From NCBI RefSeq assembly GCF_045037415.1, contig NZ_CP173438.1: a DNA stretch of 64,000 nt; one strand, 5' to 3'. Shown one piece after another: positions 15,743-17,173 of the stretch (the stretch's first letter is position 1; every line of letters starts with the position of its first letter). This stretch comes from Escherichia coli (lineage in GTDB: Bacteria; Pseudomonadota; Gammaproteobacteria; Enterobacterales; Enterobacteriaceae). The position numbers and the translations under genes are program-made. The notes below the pieces were generated by a model. It searched no databases, had not been told where the DNA came from, and saw nothing but the letters and a program-made list of their open reading frames with translations.

Positions 15743-17173
15743 TTAATGAACAAAACGTCCGGCACGAGACATAAATTCTTCTTCGCTCATCTCCTGTCCG
15801 TTAAAAACAACTTTACCCGGTGTATAACGCAGTTGCAGCGAGGCGGTATTGTTGTCAATCGTGATTAACTGCAACATCTGACCTAAGGTCATCATCCCGC
15901 TGATTTGTTTATCAGACTGCTTTTGCGCTTTTTCCGCATCCATTCCTTCAGATAAATTAAGCTGTTTTGCGGTTTCTGTGGCGACATTAAGCGGTAATTT
16001 CACATCAAAATTGAGCGATTTAATATCTTTGTTTGTGGATGATGAAGATTTGGCTGGGTCGGCAATACTGATATCCAGATTGGCATTTAGTTCGCCGAGT
16101 GCATTCTTCCATCTTACCGGTTGTTTAATGGTCGGCTCACTTTTTTGTAATAACGGTAAATACTCTTTGAACAATGCAGTATTCACTTCTTGCAGAGCAA
16201 CTTCATCGTTTGCTAACTCAGGGTGTGCAGCAAGCTGCTTCTGCATCGCAATGTTATACTGGATGATAAATTGGCGCACCGCTGAGGGATCAATAGATTC
16301 AGCAATCAATGACCACTCACCACTACCGAGTTGCTGATTCCCTTTTGTTAACTTATCAAGTTCGTAGGTCAGATTGACATTGATATAATCTTTGTCTTTA
16401 ACGCGATCCAGCTTGGTTTTTGCAACGAAAGCATCGATTTGGGCAACGTCTTCCCCGTGATTGATAATGTTAATCTGATTAAATTTCGACTCGCTTTCAC
16501 CAACCGGAAATTTCTTTTCTTCTAATCGCGCCAGAGAATCAATGGTAAAACTTTTCGCCGTTACTTTGTTCATTGGTGATAATTGCAGAACAATATCTTC
16601 AACTTTGCCTTCAATATCCAGGTTAGACAATGAACTATCATCACCATTAAAAGTAAACTGGCCTTCACCAAAAGAAAACTTTCCATACTCTGCAGGGGCA
16701 ACATCTAATGTCGTGGAGAATGAGCCACCAAACGCGAATCGCAATGTCGCTTCCACGGGCGATTTATTTTTCGCGGCGATAAATAGCGGTTGTGTCAGCT
16801 CATTATTCACTAAGTTCACTTTTGCCGCTGCCAGTGCTGGGATGACATTACCATGCATTAACATTGTGATGGGCAACGGACCGTGCTCAACATCCACATC
16901 AAATACAACTTTCTGGCCTGGCTTGATATTGAGATCGGGTGCACCGTTATCAAATGTCATTTGCATTTGAAAACGGGAATTAAAAAAACCTTTGTCAAAA
17001 TTTTTATAACTTAACGTCATGTCGTAGGCATGTTCACCTTTCTATTTAGCATCGTTAAAATCTTTAATAAACTTTTCGACACCTGGCTGAATTTGCGTAC
17101 CTGTGTACCATGTGCCACCACCCCAGATTACGGATAACGCAACAATGGCACCTGTAGCTGACTTACGTATCAT
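15743..17173 (-). pseudogene. yihF: yihF (DUF945 family) interrupted by an in-frame TAG at codon 44 (17042-17044)
   Basis: ATG at 17173 gives a signal-peptide-like N-terminus MIRKSATGAIVALSVIWGGG...FNDAK then TAG; the same frame continues as the 425 aa ORF from 17020. Confidence 0.7.

Follow-up and report, generated by a model that had tools for sequence, protein, structure and literature searches.

Does yihF still encode a protein in this Escherichia coli chromosome, or has the amber codon in its reading frame silenced it, and if so, when did the loss arise and did it matter? The gene lies on the minus strand of the window, the whole 64,000-nucleotide stretch of DNA analyzed here, in a frame that runs from an ATG at 17173 to a TAA at 15745-15743 (1431 nt, 476 codons plus stop). 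Translation confirms the starting point of the sequence-only reading, that a TAG interrupts this frame at codon 44 (17044..17042), directly after MIRKSATGAIVALSVIWGGGTWYTGTQIQPGVEKFIKDFNDAK, and it is the sole internal stop. That reading had counted 425 codons beyond the TAG; the actual number remaining in frame is 432, and 425 is the length of the longest uninterrupted ORF, 15743..17020, counted from Met52 (ATG 17020). The parts of the broken gene are as follows:

15743..17173, minus strand: yihF pseudogene (DUF945 / YdgA-family, PRK11367), 476 codons plus TAA, broken at codon 44
17042..17044, minus strand: amber TAG, codon 44, with the SNP at 17044 (T in the window, ancestral A; gene nt 130 A>T, K44*)
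17045..17173, minus strand: residual 43-codon ORF, the signal-peptide-like N-terminus alone (translation and hydropathy)
15743..17020, minus strand: 425-codon ORF from Met52, candidate termination-reinitiation product (from the ORF list)

The intact sister allele, 1 nt different from the gene in the window, yields on translation a match to the NCBIfam YihF equivalog PRK11367 / NF008472 of 1037.9 bits over residues 1-476 of 476, where the curated cutoff is 738 bits, and a match to Pfam DUF945 (PF06097) of 3.2e-105 over residues 4-464; an end-to-end family match of this kind, together with the DUF945 match, rules out a chance ORF. The order of the locus, mobB-mobA-yihD-srkA-dsbA-yihF followed by convergent yihG and polA, is that of K-12 MG1655, and yihF sits between dsbA and convergent yihG/polA in K-12, EC958, CD306, SaT040 and MNCRE44 alike. 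Judged by full-length family match and conserved position, both of which it shows, the gene is the YihF orthologue. It is retained in 5,405 of 5,425 E. coli genomes and is a conserved, species-wide core gene for an uncharacterized DUF945 protein with a signal-like N-terminus. The literature searched yielded no functional study of YihF or of DUF945/YdgA, no yihF phenotype is known, and a search for homologues of solved structure found none. A paper on an N-terminal proteoform of "YdgA" was set aside as irrelevant, since the YdgA it describes is a DNA topoisomerase and does not correspond to the DUF945 paralogue.

Comparison with K-12 defines what was lost. K-12 yihF (b3861, NP_418298.4) occupies the same locus and has the same 1431-nt length and start codon as the gene in the window, in agreement with the 476 codons first proposed as the intact YihF length, and alignment finds the AAG Lys codon that had been predicted there at codon 44. 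Annotation gives the reference gene as intact, with 476 aa from the upstream start, whereas the window carries TAG at this codon; a reference that shares the stop, or that begins at the later Met, is thereby rejected. In total the two genes differ by 28 nt and 10 aa. A far closer relative is the intact allele WP_001385583.1, annotated in ST131 as "YdgA family protein" and carried by CD306 (H30S/C0), SaT040 and G749 (H22), ZH063 (H35), USVAST219 and GPEC102. Base-by-base comparison, for which USVAST219 and GPEC102 were used, shows that it is identical to the window at 1430 of 1431 nt; gene nt 130, a T in the window, is A in this allele. One A-to-T transversion has converted Lys44 AAG to TAG in a gene that is otherwise unaltered, and the in-frame stop replaces a codon that is sense in K-12 and in ST131 strains of the H22, H35 and H30S types. 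With AAG in both K-12 and the nearest intact allele, the initial call of a nonsense allele of yihF is borne out.

We find that the 1.8-kb yihF region is 100% identical to that of many ST131 O25b:H4 genomes, and that yihF of the ST131 clade C strains EC958, JJ1886 and MNCRE44 shows 0 differences from yihF of the window. RefSeq/PGAP flags the gene as pseudo, its note reading "internal stop", in EC958, JJ1886, MNCRE44 and WP4-W18-ESBL-08, the loci listed for this allele including EC958_RS22210, P423_RS22240 and SY51_RS21970, and so arrives independently at the pseudogene that had been proposed from the letters alone. Older GenBank annotations instead present the 425-aa Met52 ORF as a "hypothetical protein" (e.g., AJO85922.1), and this exact 425-aa sequence is found on at least 1000 contigs. 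The loss of yihF is already known to annotation, and its description as a recent, lineage-specific nonsense pseudogene is sound but ordinary. Searches of the literature returned no paper naming both yihF and ST131, and those on nonsense mutations or pseudogenes in ST131 clade C returned nothing on yihF.

An exact 61-mer centered on the TAG is present in 352 of 5,426 complete E. coli genomes, and the exact intact (AAG) sister 61-mer in 79 genomes of the same set. Strains of known subclone, with ST131 subclone typing taken from Table 1 of PMC4933990, separate cleanly by the allele at codon 44:

SaT040 and G749, fimH22: AAG
ZH063, H35: AAG
CD306, H30S (C0): AAG
MNCRE44, H30R1 (C1): TAG
JJ1886, JJ1887 and JJ2434, H30Rx (C2): TAG
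EC958, clade C2 reference (PMC4850260): TAG

The TAG is therefore found in both C1 (MNCRE44) and C2 (EC958, JJ1886), and the surrounding ~30 kb follows the same order of relatedness to the window, with 0 differences in MNCRE44 (H30R1), the yihF SNP and 4 clustered 23S rRNA positions in CD306 (H30S), and 11 mismatches and 3 gaps in SaT040 (H22). Ben Zakour et al. 2016 (mBio, PMC4850260) place CD306 in subclade C0, and Table 1 of that paper separates C0 from C1+C2 by five substitutions plus gyrA only. Two clade-C-only SNPs from the same table, potB 1244787 and yhiM 3921426, have 352 exact 61-mer carriers each and, like the yihF SNP, are not in C0 CD306 and are present in C1 and C2; from the equal counts and the overlap among the accessions listed, we infer that the three sets of 352 are the same genomes. 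An allele shared by 352 genomes, in a number equal to that of two independent clade C markers, is real and inherited, and because this count equals that of clade-C-only SNPs while CD306 is intact, the TAG is best placed on the short branch from C0 to C1/C2. K44* is accordingly ancestral to C1+C2 and appears fixed there. With this branch dated from ~1980 to ~1987 (PMC4850260), the mutation would have arisen within that interval, on the branch that also gained the fluoroquinolone-resistance alleles.

As far as these counts go, the main interest of K44* is phylogenetic, in that its match to ST131 clade C is as exact as that of the accepted marker SNPs; by the same equality of counts, the loss of the gene is an ordinary one that marks a lineage. 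The A or T at yihF nt 130 provides a clean single-base marker that distinguishes clade C from its fluoroquinolone-susceptible H30S precursor; across 5,426 complete genomes its count is the same as for the accepted markers of ST131 clade C (H30R/Rx). An earlier list of 70 clade C SNPs is said to have been given by Petty et al. in 2014. The yihF SNP, which corresponds to EC958 position 4423229, is absent from the main text, the tables and the searched supplements of PMC4850260, including the 42 clade B/C SNPs of its Table 1, a table that holds no nonsense change among its SNPs. That study masked ~30% of the chromosome on grounds of recombination, and this masking is one candidate reason for the omission of the yihF SNP from Table 1.

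The 23S rRNA positions that differ from CD306 belong to the rrn operon by mobB, where four base differences fall within 12 nt (22464-22475); apart from the yihF SNP, they are the sole differences from CD306 in the 30 kb. Such clustering is less suggestive of point mutation than of gene conversion among rrn operons, or of heterogeneity between the operons. The rrn operon adjoining mobB has a tRNA-Glu(UUC) spacer at 23885-23960 on the minus strand, also present in the ST131 records inspected; the K-12 operon at the mobB-adjacent position, rrnA, has what we take to be an Ile/Ala spacer.

What does the stop do to the product? We consider it highly probable that the TAG is a nonsense allele that simply abolishes function, that it arose a single time, on the branch leading from C0 (H30S) to the common ancestor of C1 and C2 (H30R/Rx), and that it probably hitch-hiked. 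With Lys44 AAG turned into amber TAG by the transversion at nt 130, ribosomes that start at the native ATG at 17173 would be released at codon 44 by standard RF1 termination, leaving a signal-like fragment of 43 residues. The other 432 codons would go essentially untranslated, apart from what basal read-through of the UAG, and perhaps a weak restart at Met52, might yield, and a product begun at Met52 would lack the export/anchor segment and be mislocalised. The N-terminus, in which R3 and K4 are followed by a hydrophobic stretch (residues 1-19, Kyte-Doolittle 19-residue mean 1.06), is suggestive of a signal peptide or signal anchor; an internal segment of YihF, residues 104-122, is about equally hydrophobic. 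The consequence is most likely loss of function, with at most a trace of signal-less Met52 product. From its single origin the allele, now seemingly fixed in the pandemic clade, would have spread most probably by hitch-hiking with the gyrA/parC fluoroquinolone-resistance mutations of the same branch.

Any effect of the stop is expected to be confined to yihF itself, which is flanked by two terminator structures:

17284..17309, minus strand: intrinsic terminator of dsbA, 11-bp stem then a T run
15705..15738, no strand assigned: G+C-rich terminator-like hairpin between convergent yihF and yihG, 14-bp stem

The dsbA terminator isolates yihF from the upstream srkA-dsbA transcript, and with a terminator on either side and a convergent gene beyond, yihF is predicted to be transcribed on its own. 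Since nothing lies downstream in the yihF transcription unit, the nonsense codon should not be polar on its neighbors. A promoter-like match in the antisense direction, 17033-17061 on the plus strand, spans the SNP and was rejected; the SNP falls in its spacer, and 7 such hits were obtained against a chance expectation of 5.1 +/- 2.3.

The remainder of the frame bears on whether anything is made from it. The genomes inspected still have the whole 425-codon ORF past the stop, as expected for a mutation ~40 years old, and this is also compatible with a truncated product. One ribosome-binding candidate precedes Met52, and in two genomes of ST131 clade C the yihF locus has, besides the TAG, been entered independently by IS1:

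17035..17040, minus strand: Shine-Dalgarno-like AAGGTG, 14 nt 5' of the Met52 ATG, a long, suboptimal spacing
WP4-W18-ESBL-08, L015:357-1054: IS1 in the dsbA-yihF spacer (window ~17174-17326)
UID2309220027, L016:1194-1891: IS1 splitting the body of yihF

The AAGGTG lies 4 nt and the Met52 ATG 24 nt past the TAG, a distance at which a restart is mechanistically possible, and the predicted anti-SD duplex is -4.0 kcal/mol for AAGGTG compared with -5.1 for the native start. The two IS1 insertions fit an unconstrained locus, weakly so at 2 of 352.

Several other explanations would keep yihF alive. A sequencing or assembly error at 17044 that conceals an intact gene, a prospect raised by the sequence-only reading, is a general possibility with nothing further to commend it, and we regard it as vanishingly improbable: the same T has been read by many laboratories and on many platforms, in 352 complete genomes, and their independent assembly excludes a read or assembly error, while the number of TAG carriers matches that of the clade C markers exactly. 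Functional full-length YihF would instead be made if the amber codon were read through, whether with the help of a suppressor tRNA or at an efficient natural rate, and a UAG with A as the next base falls short of the strongest context for termination. The anticodons of glnV, tyrT, serU and leuX were changed to CUA in silico, and the resulting alleles were counted over all complete E. coli genomes, taking as carriers those that match in the band of at least 99%:

supE (glnV): 155 genomes, all 12 matches listed being laboratory strains, mostly K-12 derivatives
supF (tyrT): 0 genomes
supD (serU): 1 genome
supP (leuX): 7 genomes, no full-length 100% match among those listed

Because each count is below the 352 TAG carriers, none of these four alleles is a clade trait, and the suppressor that the sequence-only reading had suggested looking for is to this extent answered in the negative; the search covered these four loci, which leaves read-through some room. 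The window encodes no suppressor tRNA, tRNA-Glu being its sole tRNA. Programmed recoding fares no better, since the stop is conserved in no other lineage and the codon is sense in all other E. coli examined; a TAG confined to one recent clade gives no sign of it. An Rfam gathering scan of 9000-20500 places no element over the TAG site or yihF, its only hits, CsrC and Spot 42, lying elsewhere. We know of no pyrrolysine machinery in E. coli. All told, functional read-through is very unlikely. A start at Met52, giving a 425-residue YihF that lacks the export/anchor segment and has a retained or altered cytoplasmic function, is somewhat easier to entertain, given the intact ORF 15743..17020, the nearby ATG with AAGGTG upstream, and the 425-aa protein deposited by older annotations. 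It is nonetheless unlikely, as the 14-nt spacing from AAGGTG to ATG is far off the optimum, an envelope protein would be placed on the wrong side of the membrane, so young a mutation would be expected to leave the ORF intact in any case, IS1 has already entered the gene body in one clade C genome and the upstream region in another, and PGAP rejects the ORF as a gene.

A further question is whether the loss, if real, was itself favored, that is, selected in the clade C ancestor as an aid to the success of the clade rather than carried along by it. The SNP is among very few substitutions between C0 and C, the published table giving five others plus gyrA, and is the only gene-destroying change seen on that branch; the TAG has also reverted in none of the 352 marker-positive genomes, the identity of these sets being deduced from their counts. 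The one clue to function encountered is an NsrR binding site within yihF, in CFT073 and in K-12: ChIP-seq in CFT073 detected NsrR bound there, and yihF was among the promoters found by an earlier K-12 ChIP-chip study (PMC5320621), by which the gene may belong to the nitrosative-stress regulon. We find the NsrR-type 11-1-11 inverted-repeat motif AAGTTGTATTTGATGTGGATGTT at 16889-16911 on the minus strand, at yihF codons ~88-95; it differs by 1 nt from the CFT073 site and, being 3' of the amber codon, still stands in the pseudogene. Against selection, complete clonal linkage gives the same pattern unaided, the gene is kept in nearly all of the species (5,405 of 5,425 genomes), and YihF has no known phenotype; with complete linkage and no such phenotype, hitch-hiking is the default. 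An adaptive loss that helped the clade is thus quite unlikely, and it is a distinctly long shot that K44* represents an overlooked clade-defining loss, itself selected, for example by removal of an NsrR-associated envelope protein with a gain in colonization or stress tolerance. Were that true, YihF would become the first member of the DUF945 family to have a fitness phenotype. If YihF has an envelope or nitrosative-stress role, clade C would constitute a natural knockout in a highly successful multidrug-resistant lineage; otherwise yihF K44* is an ordinary pseudogene such as any clonal lineage gathers.

Elsewhere in the window, RefSeq annotation of CD306, SaT040 and MNCRE44 includes a pseudo-CDS between yihA and yihI ("hypothetical protein; frameshifted; internal stop") that corresponds to ~10149-10315. 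Since it maps inside the sRNA gene CsrC (10088-10341, minus strand; Rfam RF00084, 276.7 bits), the annotation of a CDS over that gene is probably spurious. Spot 42 is found at 11370-11488.
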